A stretch of DNA of 53,520 bases, the filler included, from Streblomastix strix (lineage: Eukaryota): NCBI GenBank assembly GCA_008636045.1. It is 3 parts of 3 records of this genome, joined end to end, with 100 filler letters (N's around TTAATTAATTAA, not from the genome) between each part and the next. Parts side by side here need not be neighbours in the genome. Positions count along the whole stretch, not along the records: positions 35,751 to 53,520 come from SNRW01000678.1; 2 more parts are not named here. One strand, written 5' to 3'. Of this stretch, positions 17,780 to 41,399 are shown one piece after another. The notes beneath the pieces are model-generated. The model was not told the origin of the DNA. It did not search any database and was given only the letters and a program-made list of their open reading frames with translations. A program made the translations under genes and the position numbers. How positions within the stretch are numbered: position 1 is the first letter of the stretch; each line of letters starts with the position of its first letter.

Positions 17780-17879
17780 NNNNNNNNNNNNNNNNNNNNN
17801 NNNNNNNNNNNNNNNNNNNNNNNTTAATTAATTAANNNNNNNNNNNNNNNNNNNNNNNNNNNNNNNNNNNNNNNNNNNN
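17780..17879. other. assembly gap with artificial TTAATTAATTAA spacer (contig junction)
   Basis: N-run, TTAATTAATTAA at 17824-17835, N-run; 100 nt in total and identical in form to 35651-35750. Confidence 0.95.
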
Positions 17880-17880
17880 T

Positions 17881-20800
17881 GAATAAAAAGAGAAATTATT
17901 AGAAAAATAGAAAGAAATTGAGAAAGAAAAATAGAAAATGATTGAAAAAGAAAACGAATAAGAAAAAGAGTAATTAAAATAAATAGAAAAATAGAAGAAA
18001 AAGAAAAAATTATGGAATTAATATAATGATTAATATAAACTATTAAATATATTACTTTATCGACAATAATATGAAAATAATAATAAGAATTTGTAATTAT
18101 TATAAGTTGAAGATTAATTGTCAGATAGATTATCAGAAGTTGTTTTATATCCACAATAAGAAGACATTATATTTGATTTGGTTAAGAGAGAATCAGCAAT
18201 AAAATAAGTTAAAGCATTATTTGAACTGAGTGATGATATTATAAATGAAGGAAAGAATTGGTTATCAAACTTTGCTTTTAATATGTATAAATTTAGAAGT
18301 AAGAAAGAATTGGGAACTGATATTGATTAGACAGTTTAATAATCATCTTCATCTTCATCGTCTTCTGCTTAAACTTCTTCACCTCCTCAAGAATTTGCAG
18401 TAACACTTGAATCATTATTCTAAACACCATAATTAATAACTACTTAACCAACTCAACCAATTCCTTAACCTCCAATTTAGATTCAACTTCCAATTTGGAT
18501 AACACCTGCAGTAGATTAATAATTTAAACCTCCAATTGAAGGTCCATTTGGTTTAGTTCGTCCTTAAATATAACCAAGTATTTAAGTAGTTCCTTAATCT
18601 CCATTTGATTAATAACCAATCATATTAAATTAGTCAAAACCAACATAAGAATAATAATCATCTTCTTCTTCTTCTTCTTTATCTTCAATTCCAATTCCTC
18701 CTCCTTTATAACCAACATAATAAATTCAATCAGATTCAAATCTCAAATATAAACATCATCTTTCTCTTCTTTCCAGATATCCAATTCCTTAATCTCCAAG
18801 TTCTAAATTAAAAACAGATGAAGCGAGTGTAAAGAAATATAAAACATTCTCAAAAGCATTCTTCAGATGGTTATCAATGCCACTTAGATTAGATGACATT
18901 GAATCTTCTGAAGAAATTGAGAAATGTGCAAGAGATGCAATTAGACATATTGCTACTCTATTTGAAGATACTGAATAATTGAAAGATGAAGAAAAACAAA
19001 TTATTAAATGGCATGGAAATGAATGGAGTAATTATATCAATAAGTTACTGTATGAAAGATTAATCTAACTTCCATCATTGATTGAACATTCATTCCCATG
19101 GTTATCAAAGAAAGAAAAAGAAAAAGAAAGAATTAATATGAAAGAAATAAAGAAAGGATAAACTTCAACTCTAAAATCAATGAAATGTGAAACATCCACA
19201 TCATAAACATAAACATTAACATTAACATTACATTTGTAATCAACTGATTATAAAGATAAAGAAATTAAAGATCATTTGGATGATCAAATATTCTTCTAAT
19301 TAGTATAATCTGAAGCATCATTAAAGATCTTAGGAATTGAAAGAGGAGAATAATTGAATGTTGGATCCAAAGTTATAAATCTTGCAACTGGATAGAGATG
19401 TATTGTTGTTGAGAATTCTGGTTAATCTCCAATGGTTAGTGTTGTTTATGATGAAGGAATATAAAATGGAATTAATATTAATGAATAAAGTGGAAATATT
19501 AAAGAAACGAATGTTAATTATTTATAAGCATAACTTGTACCAATTGGATGTTTAGCTTTAGATTCAGATATAATTTAGAGTAATGATAATTGGTGGAGTT
19601 AATATTAAGAATGGAAGAAAGGAGATATAATTGGATGGATTTAAGCTATTCATGGAATTATTAGACTTCATAATGATTAATTCTCTTAATTAGGAAATTC
19701 TCAAATTAATTAACCTTCTTCTTCATAATAATAATAATAAACTTCATCATCAACATCTTCAACAACTACAACAAATTTGATATAAACTAATTAATTGAAT
19801 GATAATACTTCACTTGGAGCTTGTTTATTACTTTCAAGAGCGCATATTGATGCACTTGATTTACTTGGTCGTATTGTCTGGGGTAATTCAAGTTCAGAAA
19901 TACCAGATCTTTTCTCAATTGCAAAAGTTCATCATTTTGATAAATTAACATTTGATGATAATGAAGATAAAAGTAAATTAACTGAAAGATCAGAAAGATA
20001 AGATCGAATATTATAGAAGATATTGGGAACTGTAGTTAAAATTGCATCTCAAAACAAAGTTCAAGAGAATGAGAATATCCAAAAAAGAAGAATTGTTGCA
20101 TTAGAAACTGAATTAAGTGAATTGGAAGGAATTGTTGGTGAATCAAATATTTTAATTGAAGAAAGTGGAATTAAAGAGAAATAAGAAGATTTAAATAAGA
20201 AATCAGATGATAAAGAAGATTAATCTAAAAAAGATGCAATTGAAGCAGCAAGAAAATAAGCAGCATTGAGTTCAGGACCAAATGTGATTGATAAATATCT
20301 TATTAATTGGGAAGGAGCATTCTATACTGATGTTACATCACTTTGTTTTATATTATGTAAATAATGCTTAAGTCTATAAGCACTTAGATGTTCATGCGGA
20401 TCACCAGTATAATGGAGAGGTGCATTGCATAAAAGATAATATCATTGTAATATATGCAAATAGAAAGATAAAATTGATGAATTTATTGTCAATTGTAATT
20501 GTTAGAATGAAACTGGAATATCAGGTGGAATGGCATTAGGATTAGATATATAAAGAAAGGTTGTATTCTTTGCACTTGTAAGCAGAGGAGAAATGAAAAG
20601 ATTAAATGAGAAAGTGAATTCAAATAGTAAAGATACACTTGTTGCATTATTGCATTGTCCATAAACATCAGTATTACGTGTAGCAATGCATGATAACAAT
20701 CTTCTTGAATTGAATGTTAAAACTAAGAAATTAAAACATCCATCAGGAGGAGTTGATATTGAAACAGATAAAATCTAGCATCCAAGTCTTCCAATTGATC

Positions 20801-23800
20801 CAAGAGCTATATTTGAAATACCTGATGAAGAGAAAGTTGATAAAAAAGAAGATGAATAAGAATAAGAAAAAGAAATAATTAAAGAAAAAGAAAAAGAACC
20901 AACTAAAGAAATATCATTAAATACAAAACAAACTATTCAACCATCATATAAATTACCAGATGCAAGTAAATTAAGATGGAATATTCTTCCAGTTTATTTT
21001 TCAAAGAATTCTGAAATAATTACTTTATTTGCTGATATTCCATTATTAAAAGCAATGAAAAATATGGGGAAAGATATTCTGTGGAAGAATGTATAATCAA
21101 ATTCATAAGTATGGCTTGATTAAGGTAAGAAATTATAAGAAGAAGAAAATATGAAGTAAATAACTGCAACTTCAAAACCATCTATAATATCATCATCCAG
21201 TAGTAGTTCTGATACAATTGAATCACCACATTAAATATCATCAATTGGAGATGCTATTATATCTTCTTCTTCATCATCATCTTCTTCATCATCATTATCA
21301 TCATCATCTTCATCTTTTCCTATTAGTTCCATTAGAGATGAAATTTAATTAGATTAACGTGTTCTAGACATAATTAAATCCAAAGTATCAAAAGAACATG
21401 AAAAAGCAGTATCAACACAATGGATCTCAAATAGTTCATTTGTTATTGATAATGATAGTAAAGGTAATAAAGGAATTCATATTCATCCATCTATATTATA
21501 TATTGCAATATCAGCTCTTAGATTAAAACCAGGTCATAGAGTTCTTATTGTTGGAAGAGACATATTTCTGGCTTCAGATACAATTGGGGAATTGATTAAA
21601 CCTGGAGGAGTAATTGTGAGTTGTATTCCAAGTGAGATGGAAAAATATTAGTCAAATTTCTCTAGTTTAAGATAAAAGAATAAGAAAATTAAAATTATTT
21701 CCAATGAAGAATGTTGGAAGTTAAATTAACAGAGAAGAATTGGTATTGCATAATCTGAAAATATTGAGAACTTGAAAGAATAAGAATAAATATAAATTAA
21801 AGAGAAAGAATAAGTTAAAGAAAAGGAAAAAGAAAAAGTTAAAGAATCAGGAATAGATAATAAAGTTCCAAGATAAATATCAATTCAACATCTTCCATCA
21901 TATGATTTAATATAAGATTCTCTTGAAACATTATCTAATTTAATTCTTCCTGTATATCCATATGCTTTAAAACGTGATTTATATACATTTGACCATATAT
22001 TAATATTAGATAAAGTTGATACTAAAGTACTCTTACATTTAGCTTCATTATTAGAAGATAAAGATCCAGATTCATCAATTGTATGTCCAAGTATTAAAAA
22101 TGGAGGATAATTAAAACTTCTCAAACTCAAATATGATAAATCATTTGAATCATAATAAGAAGGAGGTTCATTATCAGTAAGAATATCAAAATAATGGAAA
22201 AAGAGATCAATATTTGAATAAACATAAGGAATTGGATTTATGCCACATCGAGGAAAAGGAAGATTATTCCTTTAAAATGAATTATAAGAGAATATTGTTG
22301 ATTAGAAACCAGATGATAATTAAGAATGGTATAAAAGAATATCATTTGATAAAGCAGGTGAAATAATAGATAAATATTTCACATAATAAACTTTTGCTCT
22401 TATTCCAAGATTTGATCAGATAATCATGTATTAAGTACAAAATAGTAATCCAGAGAAAAAAGATTTCCGTTCAGCTTAATCAGTTTGGAGCAACATTCAA
22501 TGTTTATAAAATGGTATTTGCAACAGACATTCACGACCACATGTTGGATAACATCATGAAAGTGAAAACACACTATCCAAATTATAAAGAGAAGGGAAAC
22601 TTAATTGGTCATCAAAACATTCACTTCCTGATTCATATTAACCATCTTCATCCCAAAGATAGAAAGATTTGTCTGATAGAAGAGAAAGTCGTTTAATATT
22701 TTCAAAATGTGTTGCATGCGGACTTTAAAATGGTCTTGGTTGTTGTTTATCATGTTTAGTAAATTGTCATAATCACACAAAGGAATAAAAGAAAGAAATT
22801 GAAAAGAAATGGTAAAAAGCAATAAAATAAGATTCAAGTCTTAAAAAGAAAGAAGAAACTAACGATAATTTGTATCATACAACTGGATATTGTGATTGTG
22901 GAGAAGATATGAAGTAGAATAATATGCCTAAACTATGGGAATGTATTTGTAGTGGATGGGAAGGTTAGGAAAAAGAATAATAAGATTTCATTGATGTAGT
23001 TGAAGGTAAAAGAGTGATTGGTATTGGAAATGGAAGTATTGAATCATAAATAGAAGGAATTGATGAATAAATTAACAATGATTTAATATTTGATGTTGAT
23101 GATTAAGATCATATGAGTTCAAATGATGAATTATTAATTGATGAATAAAAATAATAAGAAAATGAGAAGAAATAATAAGAAATAAAAGAAAGAGATTTAA
23201 GAGATAAAATAGAAGGAGTTGGATAATTCATGTGGAGTTGTCCAGATTAAGAAGTATTTGCTCCTTATTCAATTGTTGGTACAAGAAAAGCTATGTAATG
23301 GTCTCTTGAAGGAAAGAATGTTGTATTTCTTGGAAGAATGACACGTGAATTCTTATACAGTATGAAAGGAGAATGGAATAATGGAATAAAGAAAGAATAA
23401 GAGAAAGAGAAAGAAATAGATAAAGAGATAGATAAAGATTATGAGGAATAAGAATTTAAAAAAATAGTTTAAGATGCTTTAAATTTTTAATAATTGGAAG
23501 ATGAAAAAATAGAAAGAAAGAAAGAATTAGAAAAAGAAAAAGAAAAAGAGAAATAAAAAGAAATCCAGAAATTAATTGAAATAGAAGATGGAAAAGATGA
23601 TAAATAAAAGATGCAAGAAGTTATAGCGAATATTTCAGGTAAGAAATTAGAAGAAATGAACGAAGATGAATAATTGAGACTTGCATTATAACTTTCAATG
23701 GAAGAGTAATTTGAATCTGAAAGAGAATTTGAAAGAGAACAAGAAGAATAAGAAAGAATAAGATTAGAAGAATTAGAAATATAAAGATAAAGAGAATTGG

Positions 23801-24585
23801 AGATTCTTAGAGAGAAAGCAAAGGAAATATAAAAAGTGAAAGAAAAAGAATAAGAAAAAGAAAAAGAAAGTAAACCAGAAGAATCAAATGAATTAACTGG
23901 TCTTTTACTTCTTCTTGCTCTTCATTCTGTAAATAAATAGAAATAGTAAGAGAAATAAGAATAAGATACAATTATAAAAGAGAAAGAATAAAAATAAGAG
24001 AAATAAGAAGAAGAAGAAGAAGAAGAAGCTGATGTAGATAGTAATTTTGATTTTGAATTATAAGAAGGAGAAGAAGAAGATGATGAAGAAGATGATGAAG
24101 AAGATATTGATATTGAGAATGATGATGATTTTGATAATAAATTTGGATTTGATGATGAAGATGATGAAAAAGAAGATAAACATCGTGAGAATGAAGATGA
24201 AGATGAAGAAGATGATGATGATTCATCCAAATTAAAAGAAAAAGGAGAGAAATATTTAATAACTGAAGAAAAGAAAGAAGAAGAAGAATAAGAATAAAAG
24301 AGTGAAGAAATAAAATAAGAATAATCTGGAGATATTCATACTGGAGTTTCTTCATTACTTAAATCTGTTATTGGTTGGCCAAGTTAATAAGAAAAGAAAG
24401 ATAAATAAATTGGAAAGAAGAAGAAAAAGAAGAAGAAAGTTTAATCAAAGAAAAAAGGAAAGAAAAGTTAAATTGAATCAATTGAATAAGAAGATGAAGA
24501 TGAATAAGAAGAAGATAATGATGATGTTGATGATGATTTACTTGCAATGTTAGATAGAGCTTTAGAAGCAGATGGGAATGATGAA

Positions 24586-24627
<42 letters not shown>

Positions 24628-27600
24628 GATGAAGATGATGAAGAAGAAGTACCAAAGAAAGCAAAAAGTAGTAAAGTTTAATCAAATTCAGTTGGTAAGA
24701 AGAAAAAGAAGAAAGGAAATAAAAAGAAAAAGAAACCATTTGGTGTTTCATTTGATAGAAGAACTGGTCTAAAAGGAGGAATGGATTCAGATGATGATGA
24801 AGAAGAAGATGATGATGAAGAAGAAGAAGATGATGATGATGAAGATGAAGATGAAGAAGATATTAGTAGTAATGAAAATGATGATGATGAAGATGATGAT
24901 TAAAAGAAAAAGAAGAAGGATAAAAAGAAAAAAGATAAAAAGAAGAAAAAGAAAAAAGATAAGAAGAAAAAAGATAAGAAAAAGAAAGAAAAGAAGAAAT
25001 AATAAATAATTGAGAAATCATCCTACAAAGTTGACTTATAGAAAGATTTATTCCTTCTTGGATCAAATCTTCCTTATTTTGGAAGTGAATCTATTGCTGA
25101 AATTAAGATTGATGAAAATGACGAATAATAAATTGCACTTTAAATTCTGAGTCATGGAAAATTAAATGATGAAATAAAAGAGAAAGAAAAAGAAAAAGGA
25201 AAAGAAGTTTTAATTGATAAATAGAAAGATTCAGATAAAGATAAAAGTAAGAAAGAAAAAGAAACATCCAAATCAGCAGAATAAATTGCAATATCTAAAT
25301 TAGTGAAGTAGATTAAATAAATGAATAAAGATAAATGGATCACAGATTAAGAGAAAGATCGAATAAAGAAAGAAAAGAAAGAATAAAAACTTGCAAAGAA
25401 GAAAGCAAAGAAAGAAAAGAAGAAGAAAGAAAAAGAAAAAGAAGCAGAAACAGAAGAAGATAAAAAGAAAAAAGAAATAAAAGAATAAAAATAATTAAAA
25501 AAACAAATCAAATTAGAAAAAGCAAAAGAAGCTTGGCGTACATAATAAGACATAGAAGAAGAAATGACTCAATTAGATAAAACTGGATTATTATTGTTTA
25601 TTGGGAAAAAAGATGAAAAAGAAGATAATGAAGAAGATGATGAAGAAGAAGATGATGAAGAAGAAGAAGAAGAAGATGATGATGAAGAAGAAGATGATTA
25701 AACAAAAATAAAAGAAAAACTTGAGAAAGAAAAACACAAAATGGAATTAGCTATGTTCAAAATGAAAGTTGAATAACGTAAGAAACGTGAATAGAGAATT
25801 AGACGTCGAGCAGAACATGTTCATTCAGTTGCACTTGATGATGATGGAGTTCATCCTGTTTAATCTTCAGATTCTGATTAATCAACAACTCATGAAACAA
25901 TGGGATCTAGAATTGATGAAATGCATCAAAGATTACGTGAGATGATTGAAAGGATTAGTTAAAGTCCAAGTCATGATTCAGATGATCATGATCCTGATGT
26001 ATCACCTTAAACGCATTCTTCACATAATTCTTCTCATAATTCTTCAGATGATGAAGATGATTCAATTGGAGGAAGTGAGCATCATTCATCACATCCTGAT
26101 AGAGATAGTATTCATTCATTTCATTCACATCCTGATTCAGATGCAGAAACAGAACATCATCCTGATGATAGTGATAATTATGATTCATTATTGGATAGTT
26201 TAGATGGAAGTGATATTGATGATAGTGATATAAGTGAAGAAGAAGAATAATAAAATGTTGGATTAGTTACAGTTAATTAAGATTCTTAAAATGGAGCAAA
26301 TATTTGGTAATTACTAACAAATGCATTATAAGGAGGATAACAGAATAGAGGAAATAGAGATAATTAAGCTGAATAAATTGCAAATAGATTAGAAAGATTA
26401 ATATAAGGATTCTCTGATGGAATTGATTGGACTTCTTCAAAATAAGTAGAAATCCATCCAAAAGATATTTGTGTATTGAGAGGATATGCAAAATATGGAG
26501 GAGAAGATAGTGCTGCATAAATTGCAGGTATTACAGCAAAGATTTGGAAAACTACTCAAGGATATAGAGACCGAATATGTTAAGTGATTCGTATTGAAGA
26601 TGAAAGTGCATTTGTTAGAATAATAAACAAAGAAAGAAATTAATAAGAAACATTTTGGGTTGATAAGAAAGATCTGAAGAAATGGATTATTCCAAATAAT
26701 GTAGTTAATATCCTCAATATAATTGATAAAGAAAAGAAAGGAGATTATTTATAATATTCTGGAACATTGAAAGGTATAAAAGCATTGTAGCGAATTAGAA
26801 CTGCATTACTATTAGCTGAATTCTCACTTAATTAACATTCAGCACAAAATGTAATGATTGGTTTATTAGCTAATTAACCCAGAGAAAGACTGTTTCATGC
26901 AAAATAGATTTGTGAAGAAGGATTATTACTCAAATTCCTGATCTCTATTCTATAAGGAACAGTATTCATAGATATCAGACATCCAATTGAGATAATTGAT
27001 GGGAAATAATATAAGAGAGTAAGTCAATTATAGAATTGGAAATCAATTGATGATGAAGATTTGTTAATAACAGATCGATCAAATACAAATTAATAATAAA
27101 GTAATATAATTACTCCATCTCCAATTTAATTATTAAATACTCAATAATCATTTACATAATCATATTCATAATTCAAACCTAAATTCATAATTGAGAAACC
27201 AAATAATGATTTGGAATCAATTGCAATACTTACAAGAAGAATTGGATGGTGGATTGCAGATGAATTGATTAATGGGAACATAAGTGAAAGAAGTCTTGAA
27301 ATTCTTTCTTCTGATTATTTGGAGAAGAAAGAATAACAGAAGAAGCAGATTAATGTAACAATTAAAGGAACAATTGAGAAAGAGAAAGAGAAAGAAAATA
27401 ATACAAATACAATTGGAGATAAATAAGAAAGAGAAAAGATTGATCCTATCAAATAAGATCATGAAATTGAAGGATGGGGAGATGGATGTATAAGTTTCTT
27501 ACTCAGATCTCTTTTGAGTATTATTACTTATCCATAATCAGTTGCATTATCAATATTAGCAAGTGAATCAGTTGGTCTTCATGCAATTATTCCAAGAAAT

Positions 27601-30600
27601 GGATTCTTCTCTGAATCTGAAATATATCAGACTATTAATTAAAATGAATAAATAAGTTCATAAGGTTCAAAATTGAAATTATAGACATTGAAGAAACCAA
27701 CATTATAATCATCAAAAACAAATTTGCAATAATTTAATTCAAACAAACAACTTCCTGCAGCTTCAACATAAACTTCATAATTATCTTAACTCCATTTGCA
27801 AACATCAACATTGCATTCATCAAATAGATCAATATCTCCAAGCCCTCTTTTACAATCTCAAATATAATCAACATCAATTCTTAGAATTCCTCCATTTGGA
27901 ACATGCTAATTAAATATTGGAAAATAGAATAGATTTGGTCAAATTAATTTCTTATCTTCTACTTCATCATCAGGAACAGCAGTTGGAGGATCAAATTCAA
28001 CAGGAACTGGAATATAATTAAATGAAGTAATTGTAGTTGAGAGTCCTCATAATTATTTAGACAGCACTGATTTCTCTTAAGAATTGATTATTCCTGGAGC
28101 TAATGGACTTTCTATTGCATTTGATAGAAGATGTAGAACTGAATCAGGATCAGATGTATTAAAATTCATTAATCTCAACAACAATTCATTAATAAAAGAA
28201 TTCTCAGGTACAAGAGGATTCAGTAATTTTATCATTCCAGGAACAGATCGATGTAAATTTACTTTCCGTTCAGATGGATCAGTTAATGATTGGGGTTATA
28301 AATTCTTTGTTAAAGATGCAAAAGGAAGTGGAGGAACTTCAGGAACTGGTGGATCAACAACTGGAACTGGATAATCACTTCCATTTGTTTCTGGTGCTGG
28401 TATTGAATAATAATAATAAGGACTTCCATGGAATTAATATATTAATACTTTAGCTGAAGAATCATCAATAAATTAGAATAATTAGAATAATGAAAGAAAT
28501 GAAATATAAAAGTTGAATAGTAGCAAAGGGAAATTAGAGATTGTAACTTGGATATTACAATTACTTCTTGCTTTACCAAAGAGAGGAATTCATAAGAATA
28601 AGAAATTATTCAGATAGAAATCATTCACATCAAAAACTTAATCAGATGAATCAATTGGAGAATCATAAACATATTGGATTGATTTAGCACCATTAATTAG
28701 ACCTATTCTGAATATAGTAATGATTATAAATGGATAACATCCTCTATATAGAGTATTAACATTCTAATTAGGATAGATTATATAAAGATGGTCTGAATGC
28801 CATGAAATTGCTGGAATTCAACAACCAAATCAATTTCCTCTAATTTCTCAACCATCTTCTCCTTCTCCAATAATTAAATCATAATCTCCAAATTCTAATA
28901 ATGAATTGAATACAAATATTAATGGGAGTAATTCACCTTCAATTCAATAAGGTATTTATTAATCAAAACTTCCATGTAGATCCCTTCGTGGATTTCCATA
29001 TGGTCAAATAAAGAAGTTTATTTCTCATATTGGAATGGATTCAATATAAGATGATGATGAAGATGATGATGATGAAGATATTGATGATATGAATGAAGAT
29101 GAACCTGATCCAGATGTTGATATGACACTTCCACATGCTATTTAATTATTAGAATTAAAAGCTGAGATGGTTCATGCATGTAAAGTGAGAAAGAATATCA
29201 TTCAACATCGAAGTGGATTAATATAAGATGGATTAGATAAAAGTAAATCTGATATAAAATAACCTTCAACTTCTGATAATGGTGGAATTATTGGAATCAT
29301 AACAAACACATCAAATGTACCTGACTTAGATTTCTAACCAATTGAGATTGAGTAACTTGTTTCTGGTAAAACAAATATCTTCAGATTCCACATCTTGAAT
29401 GAATTAATAGCATTCTTCTTAGGACATAGATAGATATAAGCAGAGTTTATATGGTAAGGTGTAATAGATTCAGCAATGCGTGTTGGTATCGAGACTGAAC
29501 ATCCATATTCAGAAGACTGGGGAATGAATGTTGAATTCACAGGAGCAGATAAATTAAAAGTTAAATTGGATAAAAGAACTAAATTGGACAAAGAAAAGAA
29601 ACATTGTCTTATGATGAGTAAAGAATAATTTGGTGTTGAAGAGAAGAATATTGAAACTGATTCTGCAATCTCAGTTGATGTTGCTGGATCAAAAGTATTC
29701 CTTCATCTTCTGACTAAAAATACTCCTCCTTCAGAATAAAACAGTTTTGGTGTTCATGGTTGGATTATTCCTGAATTCAAAACATAAGAAGCTCAATAAA
29801 TATTTGGGAAGTAATTCTTATCCACAATGCGAAGGATTCATGAAATATTCTCAGATCGAAGTATCTGGAATTTAGAATTGGATTCAGCTATTGTTGATTT
29901 AATTAATCATGCATAAAGAAGATTGAAAATCCCCTGGTCTGAATTAGGAATGCGTGAAGCTATTGAAGAAGCTGTAGAATCATTCTAAGATTCATATACT
30001 AATACATCATCAGTATAATTAGAATAATAAGGAAGTTAATTACCTTCAATAACTATTCCAACTTCTCAATAATAATAATAATAAGATACAAATCTTGTTG
30101 TACCTCCTTCACTACAAATGCGCAATTAATAAATTGGAGGGAAATAAATTGGATCTTCACCTTCTCCTTCTAACCTAAATTCTCCAAATAAGATTCCTGC
30201 TTTAAATATTCCTTTAGGATTTTATTCTCCAATATAAATATTTGATATTAAATCTGAAGCTCTTGATCCAGATAATAAATATTTCTAATCTATATTAATA
30301 TAACCATCAACTAAAACACCACAACCTCCTTCTAATAATAATATTCCAATTACTGATCATCCAATTGATTATATTCCAATAGATTATATTCCTTAATAAA
30401 GATCTCCAACTCCATTCTCATAATAACAGACAATTAAATTTGATCGATTCAAACCTCAGATGAAGAATCCGATCTTAATTATCTTGTAAATGGCTTCTTC
30501 ACTTCCATCATAGAGTCCATTTGCACATATTCCACTTGATGTTTGTATTCAGATTGCAAAACCAATGCCAAAAGGAATTGAAGTGAAATAAACTGAAAAA

Positions 30601-32553
30601 GAAATAACTCCAACTAAAGAAGGAATATAATCAACTTCTTCTTCTTCAATATAAGGAATTGAAACTCCAACAGATTCTGCTTCTAAATAAGAAAAGAAAC
30701 CAGAATAATTTGATATTCTCAAAGATCCACTTAATATTCACCCATTAACTGTGAGATTATCTCTCTTATAGAAATTAAATAAAATAGTTTCATCAATATT
30801 TGATACATTACCTTTGAGTTCATTAACATCTTCACTTTCATTTATGGAGATTCTAAAATCATTCAGATCTTTACTCTTCTTAGAAATTAAATAGAAGATT
30901 TGGGATGATAGAATTAGTGCATCTTCTGGAAGAGTTACTCAACCTGAGATTAAAATCAATCGTACAATCAGATCAGCTGGAAAAGCAATTCGTAATTCAG
31001 TATTTGTATAAGTAATGGAAGCTCTTAAACCATATATTGCAGCTGGAGAATTGAAATCAAGAGAAAGAGCATTTAAAGTCAATTTCATTGGAGAAGGTAT
31101 GAAATATTTATTATTATTATTAATATTTTATTTATTTATTTATTTATATTATCCTTTTTATATTCAAATAGGATCAACTGATTAAGGAGGTCCATATAGA
31201 GATTGTCTCAGTGATATGGCAGATGAATTATAATAAATCCAGGAAGAAGAAGATTCATCTTAATTTGGATCAGGAAGATCAGGAAGCAAAACAATTCATT
31301 AAGGTGTATTCAGTAGAGGAAGTATTGATAGAAGTAATACAAAGATTGGAAAATAATGTCTTCTTCCATTACTTAGACCTTCTCCAAATCATGTTGATAA
31401 TGTTGGATCTGATAGAGAATGTTTCATTCTTAATACAAGTAATGATGAATAAGAATGGAGAAGAGGTACTGAAACAAGTATGAACAGAGGATTAATGAAT
31501 ATTAGTAGTAGTAATGATTCATAAATTATTGGAAGAAGTAATATTCTAAATTAAAGGAAGATTGAGATGCTTAGATTCTTAGGTTCTCTTATGGGAATTC
31601 ACATCTTAACTCACAATCCAATGAATATTATGCTTGCTAAGATTGTATGGAGGCATATAGTTGATGAATAACCAACTCTTGAAGATCTATCTGCAATTGA
31701 TGAAGATTTTGTTAGAAGTATGCGTAGAATCCGAGATTGTAAGAGTAAAGCAGAATTTATGTAATATGGAGTAGAATGGACAGTTGTTGCATCAGATGGT
31801 CATGTTGTAGATCTAATTTCACATCGACCTATTCACATCAAAGACAAATAATCTACTTCATCTACTAAATTAGAAGAAGATATTTTAGATTCATTTGGAG
31901 ATTAAAATGAAATATCAGTTTCATTTGAAGATCGGAATGCTTATTGTTAAGCAGCAGAATAATTCAGATTATAAGAAGGTGCCTCTGAAGCAGCTGAGAT
32001 TCGATCTGGATTACTTCAACTCATTCCAGGTGAAGTTCTGTTATTGGCAACTGGACCTGAATTGGAATTTCTTGTCTGTGGTGAACCAAATCTGACAGTT
32101 GATGATCTGAGAAGAATAATCCAATTGAATGTTGGTGGGCATAAAGAGTTAATTACTATGTTCTGGGAGATGTTAGGAAGAATGACAAGTAAATAAAGAT
32201 CACTGTTCTTACGATTTGCAACTGGTAGGAGTAGGATGCCACACTTACCATAAGGAGCAGATAATATAAGAGCTGTTCCTTCTAGTTTATAACTCAAAGT
32301 TGAATTAATGGGATCTCGTTCAAGGGTTGCATTTGATAAAACATTACCAGCTAGTCACACATGCAATCAATCACTTGAACTACCTCAATACTCTTCAACT
32401 GATATTATGCTTGAGAGATTCTTATATGCCATCACTAACTGTGTATCAATTGATACTGACTTCACAGCTTCTGGTGGTTTCCGTGAAGATGTTATTCAGA
32501 CAAATGATGATTCAGAAAGTGATAATATGAGTTCTGAGGAAATGGATGACTGA
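17881..32553 (+). CDS. Giant HECT-domain E3 ubiquitin ligase (large-HERC-like HECT), 5'-partial, >4,860 aa
   Basis: One reading frame from the gap edge to TGA 32551-32553 with TAA/TAG=Gln; track ORFs 19795, 28084 and 32308 share this frame. One intron at 31097-31171. HECT motifs: RAFKVNFIGEGSTDQGGPYRD, LLPLLRPSPN, FLGSLMGI, RSLFLRFATGRSR and LPASHTCNQSLELPQYSS..ERFLYAITNCVSIDTD, with the catalytic Cys codon at 32362-32364. Upstream are PCMT-like, UBR-box, UIM and CUB-like modules and long acidic or Lys-rich tracts. Confidence 0.93.
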
Positions 32554-35650: not shown

Positions 35651-35750
35651 NNNNNNNNNNNNNNNNNNNNNNNNNNNNNNNNNNNNNNNNNNNNTTAATT
35701 AATTAANNNNNNNNNNNNNNNNNNNNNNNNNNNNNNNNNNNNNNNNNNNN
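35651..35750. other. assembly gap with artificial TTAATTAATTAA spacer (contig junction)
   Basis: N-run, TTAATTAATTAA at 35695-35706, N-run. Confidence 0.95.
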
Positions 35751-38700
35751 TGAATTATCAGCTTGTATGTTGAATATATAATATTAAATTAATAATTTAT
35801 TATTTAATATTAAAAGCTTTATTATTATTTGAATTATTAATTTATATTTTTAATTTTAAATATTTAAAATATTTTTTTTAATTTTTTACTATTATTTAAT
35901 ATTTATTTGATGTTTATTTTGTATGAAATATCAGTTCGTTTGTTCAATATTTAATAATAAATTAACAATTTATTATTTGATTTTAAAATTTTTATTATTA
36001 TTTGAATTATTAATATTTAATTTATTTTTAAATATTTAAATTTTTTTATTTTTCATTTTTACTATTATTAAATATTTATTTTATGTTTATTTTGAATGAA
36101 ATTTCAGCTTGTATGTTAAATTTATAAAAATAAATTATAATTTGATTAAAAATGTTTTTTTATTATTTGAATTATTAATTAATAATTTATTTTTTAAATA
36201 TTTAAATTATTTTTTCATTTTTACTATTATTTAATATTTATTTGATGTTTATTTTGAATTAAATATTAGAATGTTTGTTGATTTTGTAATAATAAATTAA
36301 TAATTTATTATTTTATTTTAAAATTTTTAATAATATTTTATTATTGATAAATAATTTATTTTTTAAATAATTAAATTTAATTTTTATTTATTTTATTATT
36401 TAATATTTATTTGATGTTTATTTTAAAATAAATTTCAGGTTGTATGTTGAATATATAATTTTAAATTAATAATTTATTATTTAATATTTAATATTAATAG
36501 CTTTATTATTATTTGAATTATTAATTTATATTTTTATTTCTAAATATTTAAAATATTTTTTTAATTTTTTACTAATATTTAATATATATTTAATGTTTAT
36601 TTTGAATGAAATATCAGAGAGTATGTTCAATATTTAATAATTAATTAACAATTTTTTATTTAATTGTAAAATTTTAAATATTATTTGAATTATTAATATT
36701 TAATTTATTTTTTAAATATTTAAAATGTTTTTTCATTTTTACTATTATTTAATATTTATTTGATGTTTATTTTGAATGAAACATCAGCTGGTATGTTGAA
36801 TATATAATAATAATTTAATAAATTTTTAAAAAATTATTAAAGTTTTATTATTATTTTAATTATTAATTAATAATTTATTTTTAAATATTTAATTTATTTT
36901 TTCATTTTTTACTATTATTTAATATTTATTTGATGTTTGTTTTGAAATAAATATTAGAATGTATGTTGATTTTGTAATAATAAATTAATAATTTATTATT
37001 TAATTTTAAAAATTTTAATAATATTTTTATTATTAATAAATAATTTATTTTTAAATAATTAAATTTAATTTTTATTTATTTTATTATTTAATATTTGTGT
37101 GATGTTAATTTTGAATTAAATATCAGATGGTATGTTGAATATAATATATTAAATTATTAAATTATTATTTTATTAAAAATGTTTTATAATTATTTAAATT
37201 ATTAATTTATATTTTATTTTAAAATATTTAAATTTTTTTTTTCATTTTTACTATTATTTAATATTTATTTGATATTTATTTTGAAATAAATATCAGATTG
37301 TATATTGATTATTTTATAATAAATTAATAATTTATTATTTAATTTTAAATATTTTTATTATTATATAATTTATTAATTTATAATTTAATTTTTAATATTT
37401 AAATTTTTTTTTCATTTTTTCTATTATTTAATATTTATTTGATGTTTATTTTGAAATAAATATCAGATTGTATGTTGATTATATAATTTTTAATTAATAA
37501 TTTATTATTTAATTTTAAAAGTTTAATTTTTATTTATATTATTAATTAATAATTTATTTCTAAATATTTAATTTATTTTTTCATTTTTACTATAATTTAA
37601 TTTTTATATGATGTTTATTTTGAATGAAATATCAGCTTGTATGTTCAATATTTAATAATAAATTATCAATTTATTGTTTAATTTTAAAATTTTTATTATT
37701 ATTTGAATTATTAATAAATAATTTATTTTTAAATATTTAAATTATTTTTTCATTTTTAATATTATTTAATATTTATTTGATGCTTATTTTGAAATAAATA
37801 TCAGCTCGTATGTTGATTATGTTATAATAAATTAATAATTTATTATTTAATTTAAAAAATTTTAATAATATTTTTATTATTAATAAATAATATTTTTTTT
37901 AAATAGTTAAATTTAATTTTTATTTATATTTTTATTTTATATTTATTTGATGTTAATTTTGAAATAAATTTCAGGTTGTATGTTGTATATGTAATATGAA
38001 ATTAATAATTTATTATTTAATATTTAATATTGAATTCTTTATTATTATTTGAATTATTAACTAATAATTTATTTTTAAATATTTAATTTATTTATTCATT
38101 TTTTTTTATTATTTAATATTTATTTGATGTTTGTTTTGAAATAAATATTAGAATGTATGTTGATTATGTTATAATAAATTAATAATTTATTATTTAATTT
38201 TAAAAATTTTAATAATATTTTTATTATTAATAAATAATTTATTTTTAAATAATTAAATTTAATTTTTATTTATTTTATTATTTAATATTAATGTGATGTT
38301 AATTTTGAATAAAATATCAGATGGTATGTTGAATATAATATATTAAATTATTAAATTATTATTTAAAATTAATAGCTTTATTATTATTTGAATTATTAAT
38401 TAATAAATTATTTTTAAATATTTAAATTATTTTTTTCATTTTTTACTATTATTTAATATTTATTTGATATTTATTTTGAAATAAATATCAGCTCGTATGT
38501 TGATTAAATTATAATAAATTAATAATTTATTATTTAATTTAAAAAATTTTAATAATATTTTTATTATTAATGATTAATTTATTTTTAAATAATTAAATTT
38601 AATTTTTATATATATTATTATTTAATATTTATTTGATGTTAATTTTGAATGAAATATCAGGTTGTATGTTGAATATATAATATGAAATTAATAATTTATT

Positions 38701-40045
38701 ATTTATTATTAAAAGCTTTATTATTATTTGAATTATTGGTTTTATTTTATTTCTAAATTTTTAAATTATTTTTTTTAATTTTTTACTATTATTTAATATT
38801 TATTTGATATTTATTTTTAATCAAAATTTCAGCTCGTATGTTGATTATGTTATAATAAATAAATAATTTATTATTTAATTTTTAATGTTATATTATTATT
38901 TGAATTATTAATATTTAATTTATTTTTAAATATTTAAATTTTTTTATTTTTCATTTTTACTATTATTTAATATTAATGTGATGTTTATTTTGAATGAATT
39001 ATCAGCTGGTATGTTGAATATATAGTATTAAATTATTAAATTATTATTTAATATTAAAAGCTTTATTATTATTTGAATTATTAATTAATAATTTATTTTT
39101 AAATTTTTAAATTATTTTTTTCATTTTTTACTATTATTTAATATTTATTTGATGTTTATTTTGAAATAAATATCAGCTCGTATGTTGATTATGTTATAAT
39201 AAATTAATAATTTATTATTTAATTTTAAAAATTTTAATAAAATTTTTATTATTAATAAATAATTTATTTTTAAATAATTAAATTTAATTTTTATTTATTT
39301 TATTATTTAATATTTAATTGATGTTTATTTTAAATGAAATATCAGTTTGTATGTTAAATATATATTATTAATTTATTATTTAATTTTATAAGTTTTTATT
39401 ATTATTTAAATTTTTAATATATATTTTTATTTTTAAATATTTAAATTATTTTTTTAATATTTACTATATTTTAAAATTTATTTATTGTTTATTTTGAATG
39501 AAATATCAGCTCGTATGTTGGATATATAATTATATATTAATTATTTATTATATTAATTTAAAAATTTTATTATTAATTGAAGAATTAATTTATAAATTAT
39601 TTTTTAATATTTAAATTTATTTTTAATTTTTACTATTATTTAATATTTATTTTATATTTATTTTGAAATAAATATCAGATGGTATATTGATTATATAATA
39701 AAAATTTATTAATTTAATAAATGTTTATAAGAATTTTATTATTAATTGAATTTTTAGTTTATAAATAATTTTAAATATTTAAATTTTTTTTTGTTTATAA
39801 TTTTTATTTATTTGAATTTTTTTTTATTTATAATTTTTATTTATTTGAATTTATTTATTGTTTATTTTGAATGAATTATCAGCTGGTATTTTGAATATAT
39901 AATAATAATTTAATAATTTAATATTTAATTATAAGAATTTTATTATTAATAAAATTTTTATATATTTAAATTTATTTTTTATTTATTATTTTATTTAATA
40001 TTTATTTATTGTTTATTTTGAATTAAATATCAGCGGGTATAATAA
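35751..40045 (+). repeat. tandem array of at least 26 AT-rich units of ~170 bp, each containing YAG-NNN-GT (intron plus 3-nt microexon)
   Basis: Core consensus TTTGATGTTTATTTTGAA(T/A)(G/T)AAATATCAG-NNN-GTATGTTGA with period 151-204 nt, mostly 169-173. The array runs off the contig start. Confidence 0.95.
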
Positions 40046-40705
40046 ATATTTATTAACAAATTTTTTTTATTTATTAAAATATTTTTAATTTTGATTTGTT
40101 TATATTTTTATTTATGATTTTTTTAGTTGGTGAACATTCAATTCGATTTATAAGCAGGTATCGTATATTTATATTTTTATCTTTTTTATACTTATTTAAA
40201 AATTTATTTTCGTTTAATATCTGATTATTTTAATATTCTTTTTAATTCTTTTTAACTTTTAATTAATTATATTTTATTATTATTTTATTATAATTGTCAA
40301 ACAGTGGTGATCTTTAAAACTCGATTAAATTTGAAAAATTTAGTTAAGTTTCATTTCCAGCGAAAGGGAATCAAATCTTCCGTTGTGGGTAGCGTTTGCA
40401 AGTCGAAGTTGACTTTAAATCAGTTCCAAGCAAAGTGGTGTTCTTTATTGATGGGGAATAGCAGAAGAACTACGTAACAGGAGTTCCGGACAAGATTCGC
40501 TTTTTCGTTTGATTAATTAATAATTTATATAAACCAATAATTTTCATATATTTTTTTTTGAATTGTTGTTATAATTCAGGCATTTGTTCAATAAGCAGGA
40601 TCATCCTTTCATATCACAAGATCTGAAAGACTCCGTTAGTCCTCAGCTCGAATTGATGCAGATTCTGTTGAATGGAAATGGGGAGAAAACTGGAAACGAA
40701 ATTGA
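35762..40705 (+). CDS. SPRY/B30.2-like domain gene, 5'-partial: 26 putative 3-nt microexons followed by exons 40127-40157, 40305-40506 and 40580-40705
   Basis: The conventional exons splice in frame to xGEHSIRFISSGDLQNSIKFEKFSQVSFPAKGNQIFRCGQRLQVEVDFKSVPSKVVFFIDGEQQKNYVTGVPDKIRFF/AFVQQAGSSFHITRSERLRQSSARIDADSVEWKWGENWKRN*. This is homologous to the 16722-17670 paralog and shares its intron after IRFF/IRLF. Inclusion of the microexons is inferred from splice signals only. Confidence 0.8.
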
Positions 40706-41399
40706 TATCAAGAAGAAGAAGAAGATGATGAAATGATTGAAATAATAATTAGAATAAAGAATAAGAGTTCAAAAGATTGCGCACTGAAATCATAATAGTT
40801 ATTTGCGATTATTTAATGAGTGTCTAAAATTGTATCAAATAAATGAGTTCTAGCACAATTTTATGTTTTTATAAAAATTTCAAATAAAATTTTTTGTATT
40901 TAGTAAGTAGAAAGTGAGAGTTTTAAAGTGCATTAAAAAACTTTGGGTAAAAAATTATTAAATTTAACAAATAATAAATATATAATCAATAAAAATAAAA
41001 CATAAACGTAAAAGAATAAAGATTAAACCAAAAATACTTAAAGATTTTGTTATTATACCAAATCGTTAATAGATGATCGTGAGAACTGAATAATAAATAA
41101 TTATTTTATTAAGACGAATCAAACCATTGGTTAATAATTCTTTTGTCGGAAAATACTTGGATATGCGGGATGAAATAATTTATTGAACAAATTTCAAGTA
41201 ATTTTTTTAATAATAATTAAAGTAATAATAATAATTATAATAATACTTTTTAATGGATATATCAATTAAATTAATATTGTTTATAAATTTATTTTTTAAA
41301 ACTCTTACCTACAAAAAATTTACTGATCATATATATTTTACTTTATATATTTTTCATAAATAAAACACATTATGGATTTTATTCGTCGTTTCCAGCTCA

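Follow-up and report, generated by a model that had tools for sequence, protein, structure and literature searches.

A tandem array of intron-like units, each separated from the next by exactly three bases, lies upstream of the visible exons of a B30.2/SPRY-like gene in Streblomastix strix, an oxymonad of the termite hindgut. The array was found on contig SNRW01000678.1 (assembly GCA_008636045.1), the last of three S. strix contigs of about 17.77 kb each that were joined into the 53,520-nucleotide stretch analysed here (the window). Every triplet in the array stands between an acceptor-like and a donor-like sequence, and the units have the ends, length and composition of S. strix introns. We lean, though only slightly, towards serial splicing of tandem intron-plus-codon modules, in which the triplets would be kept in the mRNA as single-codon exons. 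This reading is drawn from the DNA sequence: the splice dinucleotides of the units are invariant, the triplets are composed like exons, and their periodicity matches the reading frame of the exon that follows.

Layout of the array and its splice-site-like junctions

The original prediction described at least 26 three-nucleotide microexons inside a SPRY-like gene, and a recount reproduced its figures. At the coordinates listed in Table 1, the motif YAG-NNN-GT is present at 26/26 junctions, with a spacer of exactly 3 nt in 26/26. The acceptors are 23 CAG and 3 TAG, and the donors are 20 GTATGT, 2 GTTTGT, 2 GTATAT, 1 GTATTT and 1 GTATAA. By position, GT is found in 26/26 donors, A at +3 in 24/26, T at +4 in 26/26 and G at +5 in 22/26. 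The enclosed triplets take 11 distinct values (CTT, TTC, AAT, GTT, AGA, CTG, ATG, ATT, CTC, TTT and CGG). The array measures 4.3 kb and is on the strand of the gene, and the last junction is 90 nt upstream of the exon starting at 40127. Within each unit, GTATGT or a near variant stands at the start, TTGAT/TTGAA branch-like motifs follow and YAG stands at the end.

Tandem Repeats Finder detected, in 35756-39792, a period of 169 (23.7 copies, 80% matches) and a period of 340 (11.9 copies, 83% matches). Comparison of the 25 complete units with each other showed that intron identity peaks at shifts of two and four units, and higher-order repeats occur at shifts of 2, 4 and 7 units, which suggests expansion by unequal crossing-over. 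With these two periods the array has head-to-tail monomers and higher-order repeats like those of a satellite. The window contains 28 matches to YAGNNNGTWTDT, whereas 100 shuffles average 6.1 +/- 2.4 and none reaches 28; 25 of the matches fall in the array on the + strand and the other 3 elsewhere on the - strand. A search of the window with a profile of the unit returned no further copy in the remaining 49 kb, so that the unit is present only here, on the strand of the gene. Scanning the metagenome for the junction pattern gave 70 loci with one match each, none of them fitting the unit profile, so that these are chance hits, and no array. The translation of the array (P0007) had no match in the protein collection within the range of 121-385 aa.

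The units look like genuine S. strix introns in donor, acceptor, length, GC content and T-richness. All 25 complete units (25/25) are 148-201 nt long (about 167 nt), with 7% GC overall and 5% GC in the intron cores. The AT skew of the array, -0.21, lies within the range of four of the window's ordinary introns (-0.19 to -0.33), the array being T-rich on the + strand as they are. In the accessible text of the expressed sequence tag (EST) study, 21 S. strix introns are described, with lengths of 46-229 nt, A, U and G at +3 to +5, a T-rich composition and invariably a pyrimidine before AG (PMC1501061). The same 5′ consensus, the pyrimidine followed by AG, the T-rich tail, a length within 46-229 nt and a GC content below that of the exons are all found in the units.

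A parsimony tree was computed from the intron columns. On it, neither the G of GT nor that of AG undergoes any change (0), while the 10 other G/C consensus columns undergo 2-7 changes (mean 4.1), a contrast to be read with the shared ancestry of the units in mind, which means that the 26 copies do not count as independent. In this very AT-rich genome the other G/C columns have decayed and the splice-site Gs have not, which suggests that the splice sites of each unit are kept by selection. The same observation bears on a different explanation, which we consider unlikely, in which a satellite has grown within one intron and the whole array is removed in one or in nested steps, leaving (almost) no triplet in the mRNA. 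Tandem expansion of an intron would require no function. However, the internal GT and AG would then be free to decay like the other G/C columns, yet they have not changed, and the resulting intron of 4.4 kb would be about 20 times as long as the longest of the 21 introns described in the accessible text of the EST study (PMC1501061).

Misassembly of the array was judged unlikely: the units differ by about 16%, and a single DNA unitig of 218 nt runs across the last junction, the 90-nt intron and exon 1 with 0 differences. Among the matches listed for DNA unitigs over 39990-41000, there was no joint that skips the 90-nt intron. The 3′ end of the unit is also present in a second, independent termite-gut DNA data set (X2). 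The DNA depth of this 3′ end compared to that of exon 1 is 4069 vs 36.5 in X1 and 576 vs 6.2 in X2, but these figures are unusable as copy numbers because AT-rich low complexity at 80% likeness confounds them. At a loose end at 40030, three X2 contigs continue the 3′ end of the unit with a sequence that resembles an exon but differs from this locus, so that unit-like intron ends may adjoin further exons or be present in a different strain.

The 5′ limit of the array is the contig end at 35751, and the true array may therefore be longer. In the accessible text of its description, the published S. strix assembly is highly fragmented, with 50,889 contigs and an N50 of 5.18 kb (PMC10703272).

Triplet variation and the reading frame of the downstream exons

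The composition of the spacers is that of exons. Of the 78 spacer bases, 30 are G or C (38%), whereas the intron cores have 5% GC and exons 1-3 have 32-40%. Per-column entropy was calculated from a MAFFT alignment of 25 units. The three triplet columns reach 1.71, 0.76 and 1.68 bits, whereas the 166 non-triplet columns average 0.39 bits and do not exceed 1.57 bits, in line with the earlier claim that the enclosed bases vary within an otherwise repeated unit. Bases 1 and 3 of the triplet are the two most variable columns of the unit, and raw entropy is independent of the tree. When the triplets were scored with the upstream/downstream intron, base 1 required 12/10 parsimony steps and base 3 required 9/10, while the 166 intron columns averaged 1.6 steps and reached 9 at most. 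Units that are 96% identical may carry triplets differing at all 3 bases. On the other hand, the triplets are partly inherited with the higher-order repeat, AAT-unit-ATG and CTC-unit-GTT each occurring twice, which makes them old parts of the repeat and not assembly noise. That the triplets diverge much faster than the introns may reflect either diversifying selection or the fact that only the triplets are free to use all four bases.

The host uses genetic code 6, in which TAA and TAG encode Gln; the standard code gives no long frames in the window. Exon 1 is in phase 1 according to both the annotated protein and the family profile described below, and the spliced product scores 110 bits in this frame and less than 0 in the other two. 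The translation of exon 2 is 100% identical to an annotated S. strix protein; a ciliate origin, at first suggested by genetic code 6, was rejected on this match. Since exon 1 takes one upstream base, the middle base of each triplet falls on the wobble position. This middle base is the quiet one, with T in 21/26 triplets: the GC content of the three spacer positions is 58%, 8% and 50%, and the third codon positions of a HECT open reading frame (4,890 codons) in the same window have 13% GC. Of the two variable bases, the first (58% GC) corresponds to codon position 2 and the third (50% GC) to codon position 1. The codon-usage likelihood of the triplets is best in the frame of exon 1 (-4.14, compared to -4.50 and -5.09 in the other frames), and the chain of triplets contains no TGA in that frame. 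We regard the match between the periodicity of the triplets and the frame of exon 1 as independent, if modest, support for their being read as codons, as it would arise by chance in one case out of three.

Bounded by an acceptor and a donor, frame-neutral in length and coding-like in composition in the frame of the gene, the triplets are candidate microexons. Composition and periodicity also speak against the removal of the array as a single large intron: unexpressed triplets should have drifted to about 5% GC, yet they have kept their exon-like GC content and a codon periodicity in the frame of the gene.

In the exon 1 frame, the triplets would encode a peptide with much Ser, Ala, Gln, Tyr and Arg and little Lys or Glu. 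The summed fraction of Ser, Ala, Arg, Tyr and Gln is 0.64 in this peptide, 0.57 in the N-terminal 37 residues of the related protein P0010 and 0.26-0.33 elsewhere, and is matched in 122/50,135 background windows; as the statistic was chosen after seeing the data, it serves as a lead only.

Table 1. Coordinates of the array, its spacers and the exons and introns that follow (positions along the window).
Feature	Position	Strand	Description
Tandem array	35751..40036	+	cut by contig start; 26 YAG-NNN-GT junctions, 25 complete intron-like units
Three-base spacers (26)	35762..40036	+	predicted single-codon exons; first bases in the next two rows
Spacers 1-13, first bases	35762, 35935, 36108, 36270, 36439, 36618, 36788, 36958, 37127, 37297, 37467, 37636, 37805	+	
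Spacers 14-26, first bases	37975, 38152, 38321, 38492, 38661, 38833, 39006, 39177, 39346, 39510, 39679, 39883, 40034	+	
Intron between last triplet (CGG) and exon 1	40037..40126	+	90 nt, GT...TAG
Exon 1	40127..40157	+	31 nt, phase 1 (one upstream base, then TT GGT GAA), encodes ..GEHSIRFIS
Ordinary intron	40158..40304	+	147 nt, GTATCG...ACAG, 11% GC
Exon 2	40305..40506	+	202 nt, 38% GC, core of SPRY-like domain
Ordinary intron	40507..40579	+	73 nt, GTTTGA...TCAG
Exon 3	40580..40705	+	126 nt including TGA stop; last strands and family-conserved W.WG..WK tail

Downstream of the array, a second CAG acceptor was noted 19 nt into exon 3 (40580-40740, + strand). An exon starting there, at 40599, opens the frame DHPFISQDLKD...KKKKKMMK. 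The C-terminus of the paralogue model P0015 uses the 40599 frame, while the family-conserved tail uses the other one. Either an alternative 3′ splice site or a slip in annotation could account for this.

The SPRY-like family and the position of the array within it

The visible exons encode only the C-terminal 60% or so of a B30.2/SPRY-like domain. The original prediction had the N-terminal half of the domain missing and the array in the place of one protein loop, and both statements were borne out by the family profile. This profile was built from 9 cuts from S. strix members, 8 of which hold the full-length domain; the P0031 cut is mis-anchored and lies outside the domain. The product of the visible exons aligns only from profile position 69 of 176, that is from ..SIRF on. 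In full-length members, the segments ..DP.I..G..RFE.. and ..IGIAD.S are followed by a loop of 15-18 residues, by ..(T/S)(V/I)R(Y/F).. and by the rest of the domain. The array is located exactly where these members encode the loop between the two strands.

A phmmer search with P0010 retrieved 181 proteins at E <= 1e-3, and all 10 that were looked up are from S. strix. Four of these 10 bear UniRef names of SPRY domain-containing (P0022, P0025) or B30.2/SPRY domain-containing (P0024, P0077) proteins, and 2 are kinases, one labelled putative aurora kinase and the other a protein-kinase-domain protein. A Pfam scan of 18 hits revealed a protein-kinase domain upstream of the SPRY-like domain in 5. 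The Pfam SPRY profile matches P0009 at positions 52-117 of 121 with E = 0.014 and 15.9 bits, below the cut-off of 26.3, and the Neuralized profile reaches at best E = 0.037 (P0009) and 0.05-0.1 in other members, all below cut-offs. A sequence search of the PDB with a profile of 5 paralogues gave 0 hits up to E = 10. Compared with SPRY clusters, the Atlas model of P0010 reaches TM scores of 0.61-0.63, and compared with a Preaxostyla kinase cluster 0.82, while the AlphaFold models of P0002 and P0010, computed with alignments, have pLDDT values of 41.5 and 37.6 and are too poor to use. Homology to SPRY-named proteins, together with the Atlas model of P0010, points to a probable SPRY-type β-sandwich fold. 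The SPRY-like domain was also observed in P0018, P0020, P0048, P0085 and P0141 of S. strix, members of a large family in which it is often C-terminal to a Ser/Thr kinase behind a coiled-coil linker and sometimes occurs twice per protein.

The subfamily of this locus comprises 13 S. strix models of 71-166 aa, none of which has recognisable SPRY sequence upstream of the array point. All 13 are cut at or after this point; they have open frames with 64-90% identity and keep 12 invariant and 13 near-invariant columns. Because the invariant residues are kept in the 13 models, selection would have acted on the full product. As such a product would be unable to fold without its missing half, this speaks for transcripts that cross the array. 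The cut models further indicate that part of the S. strix proteome is probably mis-annotated because arrays break assemblies and gene models.

Some of these models link the unit directly to the exon. P0003 and P0004 share the N-terminus MFILNEVS, which the final 24 nt of the unit give when translated; that of P0003 matches at least 19 units and that of P0004 matches 18. In both cases the gene finder evidently started inside a unit-like intron adjoining the exon. Residue counts indicate that the exon behind the unit-like intron end is exactly 3 nt longer in P0003, P0004 and P0005 than here, where the 90-nt GT..AG piece at 40037-40126 lies between the extra 3 nt (CGG) and the rest of the exon. 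Judging by these protein lengths, the last triplet would be exon sequence in P0003, P0004 and P0005, and the 90-nt intron would be absent from them. P0006 shares its N-terminus with this locus, which suggests that it carries the 90-nt intron too.

A related observation was made in P0011, which begins with MFILNEIQ, a variant of MFILNEVS. Here the unit-like end adjoins a different place in the coding sequence (..VSFP.KGNQ), which at this locus lies within exon 2, and the conserved sequence is once more preceded by 3 additional bases. The intron family may sit at more than one position, or a deletion may have fused an array to the middle of an exon.

A unit-like intron end at a different coding point is also what a rearrangement would leave, and P0011 thus fits an explanation in which the array is an untranscribed AT-rich satellite beside 5′-truncated SPRY copies (dead fragments or silent cassettes, in a composite repeat), the splice-like box being the relic of an intron. 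The length of the monomer, its AT content and its higher-order structure are consistent with this, as is the lack of the N-terminal part in 13/13 paralogue models, which lie on short contigs of 0.8-17.8 kb. However, the open frames and invariant residues of these models, at the identities given above, argue for selection on a product for which the missing half is required; the invariant GT/AG, the exon-like GC content of the triplets and their frame-matched periodicity would be left unexplained; and the unit has no other copy in the rest of the window. We therefore assign a low probability to an untranscribed array.

The fact that the gene finder took the ATG of a unit as start in P0003, P0004 and P0011 could also mean that each unit is a small transcription unit, either an alternative first exon extending from the ATG, 24 nt before the CAG, to the donor, or one gene in an array for a spliced-leader-type RNA. 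The ATG is in frame with the downstream exon in most units and its G is kept in 84%; in addition, spliced-leader genes typically form tandem arrays in which the donor is conserved. Against this, the AG before the triplet is invariant, although it would be needless in coding or leader sequence, and the last unit has TTG instead of ATG. No Rfam family matches the unit, and the RNA fold of one unit is not stable (z = +1.3). The accessible text of the S. strix EST paper mentions no common leader (PMC1501061). Small transcription units are thus very improbable.

Proposed serial splicing of intron-plus-codon modules and comparison with known systems

Under the serial splicing that we favour, the module would have been founded by tandem duplication of an intron together with 3 flanking exon bases, since no shorter insertion than 3 nt leaves the frame intact. 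The module would then have been multiplied by unequal crossing-over. A spliceosome used to introns of 46-229 nt would remove each unit of about 167 nt separately. All unit introns would be in phase 1, and each unit would add about one residue to the loop that immediately precedes the ..SIRF strand. If a donor were now and then joined to an acceptor further downstream, codons would be lost in frame and length variants would arise. Judged by the sequence, constitutive serial splicing may fit at least as well as the include-or-skip splicing put forward in the original prediction.

Several points weigh against the retention of the triplets. Transcription, splicing and triplet inclusion are all deduced from DNA, and a monomer of about 170 bp with 93% AT and higher-order repeats also describes an ordinary satellite. 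The intron columns fit their own tree by construction, and the step counts of the triplets would come out too high if units had recombined. The loop is steady at 15-18 residues in other subfamilies, where one of at least 26 residues would be unusual. When the triplet peptide was tested for likeness to the family loop, the profile score was 110.1 bits, compared to 108.5 +/- 0.96 for 1,000 shuffles of the triplet order, of which 7.7% are as good, so that the likeness is not significant; nor was any likeness to the N-terminus of P0010 found in any frame. The steadiness of the loop and the insignificant score would both fit removal of the array as a whole. The upstream exons, which would encode the N-terminal 65 residues or so, lie outside the contig, and their linkage to the array is putative. 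Finally, the assignment to the family relies on sub-threshold Pfam scores and UniRef names, and the AlphaFold models are poor.

A combinatorial loop would go one step further. Any donor could be joined in frame to any later acceptor, so that one gene would yield many loop lengths and sequences, and unequal crossing-over would add and reshuffle codons among at least 13 paralogues. This extension seems to us rather doubtful. If it were true, the array would be a splicing-based generator of diversity at the smallest possible grain. If the triplets are exons, the array would be the longest known run of minimal exons; a short-intron spliceosome would be able to process dozens of successive 3-nt exons, and a protein would have been lengthened codon by codon via tandem duplication of an intron plus 3 bases. 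The locus might then be the oxymonad counterpart of the schistosome micro-exon genes, in a loop of a multiplied, kinase-fused binding domain.

In schistosome micro-exon genes (MEGs), differential splicing of the micro-exons varies the protein. The likeness lies in the runs of very short frame-neutral exons, which in MEGs are 3-81 bp long and symmetrically placed, according to the accessible text of a recent preprint (bioRxiv 10.1101/2023.06.21.545858). Unlike in MEGs, all exons would be 3 nt long here, and the introns, of about 167 nt, are tandem copies of each other, while MEG introns are long and unrelated. The product also differs, being an intracellular-type B30.2/SPRY domain of an oxymonad and not a schistosome secreted protein. 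The MEG family is defined by homology or lineage and by a secreted product. This B30.2/SPRY-like protein, whose N-terminus lies outside the visible part, does not share the lineage, and the resemblance of an array known from its DNA would thus be an analogy in architecture, not membership.

Recursive splicing at ratchet points involves zero-length exons, in which an acceptor is at once followed by a donor, and removes a long stretch piecewise. Ratchet points leave nothing in the mRNA, whereas here 3 nt would remain per step. Alpha-satellite-type DNA is built of AT-rich monomers of about 170 bp with higher-order repeats, and the array resembles it in monomer length, AT richness and higher-order periodicity (here 2, 4 and 7 units). 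Unlike the array, such satellites are not known to have either invariant splice dinucleotides around an exon-like hypervariable triplet or a fixed link to one exon of one gene family.

Other comparable systems are known from the literature, cited here from the accessible parts of the reports. As in Dscam-type tandem exon arrays and human tandem exon substitution (PMC9741552), exon-plus-intron modules appear to have been multiplied in a variable part of a binding domain. However, the exons of those arrays are full-sized and mutually exclusive, with one per transcript, whereas the modules here would be additive and contribute one codon each. Single 3-nt microexons in Drosophila hth (PMC7392893), cytohesin-1 (PMC6314551) and MAP4K5 (PMC8632122) indicate that the spliceosome can include an exon of 3 nt. 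These animal and plant microexons are isolated, conserved and regulated, whereas the array would form a series of 26 whose introns are homologous. Tandem genomic duplication is also described as a source of intron gain in potato RdRp (PMC4974935), where it likewise creates a new donor-acceptor pair, but in that case one intron arose from exon sequence, while here an existing intron plus 3 exon bases would have been multiplied about 26 times. None of the systems compared has both exons that are all of single-codon size and introns that copy one another in tandem. A literature search on tandem 3-nt exons, tandem introners and Streblomastix introns, a scope outside which the genome paper of Treitli et al. 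2019 lies, found no such array.

As regards the remainder of the window, linkers of the form N44-TTAATTAATTAA-N44 at 17780-17879 and 35651-35750 mark the contig joins, and neighbourhood across them is therefore meaningless. The contig between the two linkers carries a giant HECT E3 ubiquitin-ligase frame at 17881-32553 (+ strand), the one used above for codon composition, with 332 TAA/TAG codons read as Gln and a Pfam HECT match at E = 2.4e-49. This frame contains an in-frame intron of about 75 nt (GTATGA...ATAG) near 31127-31201, which reads through as MKYLLLLLIF....

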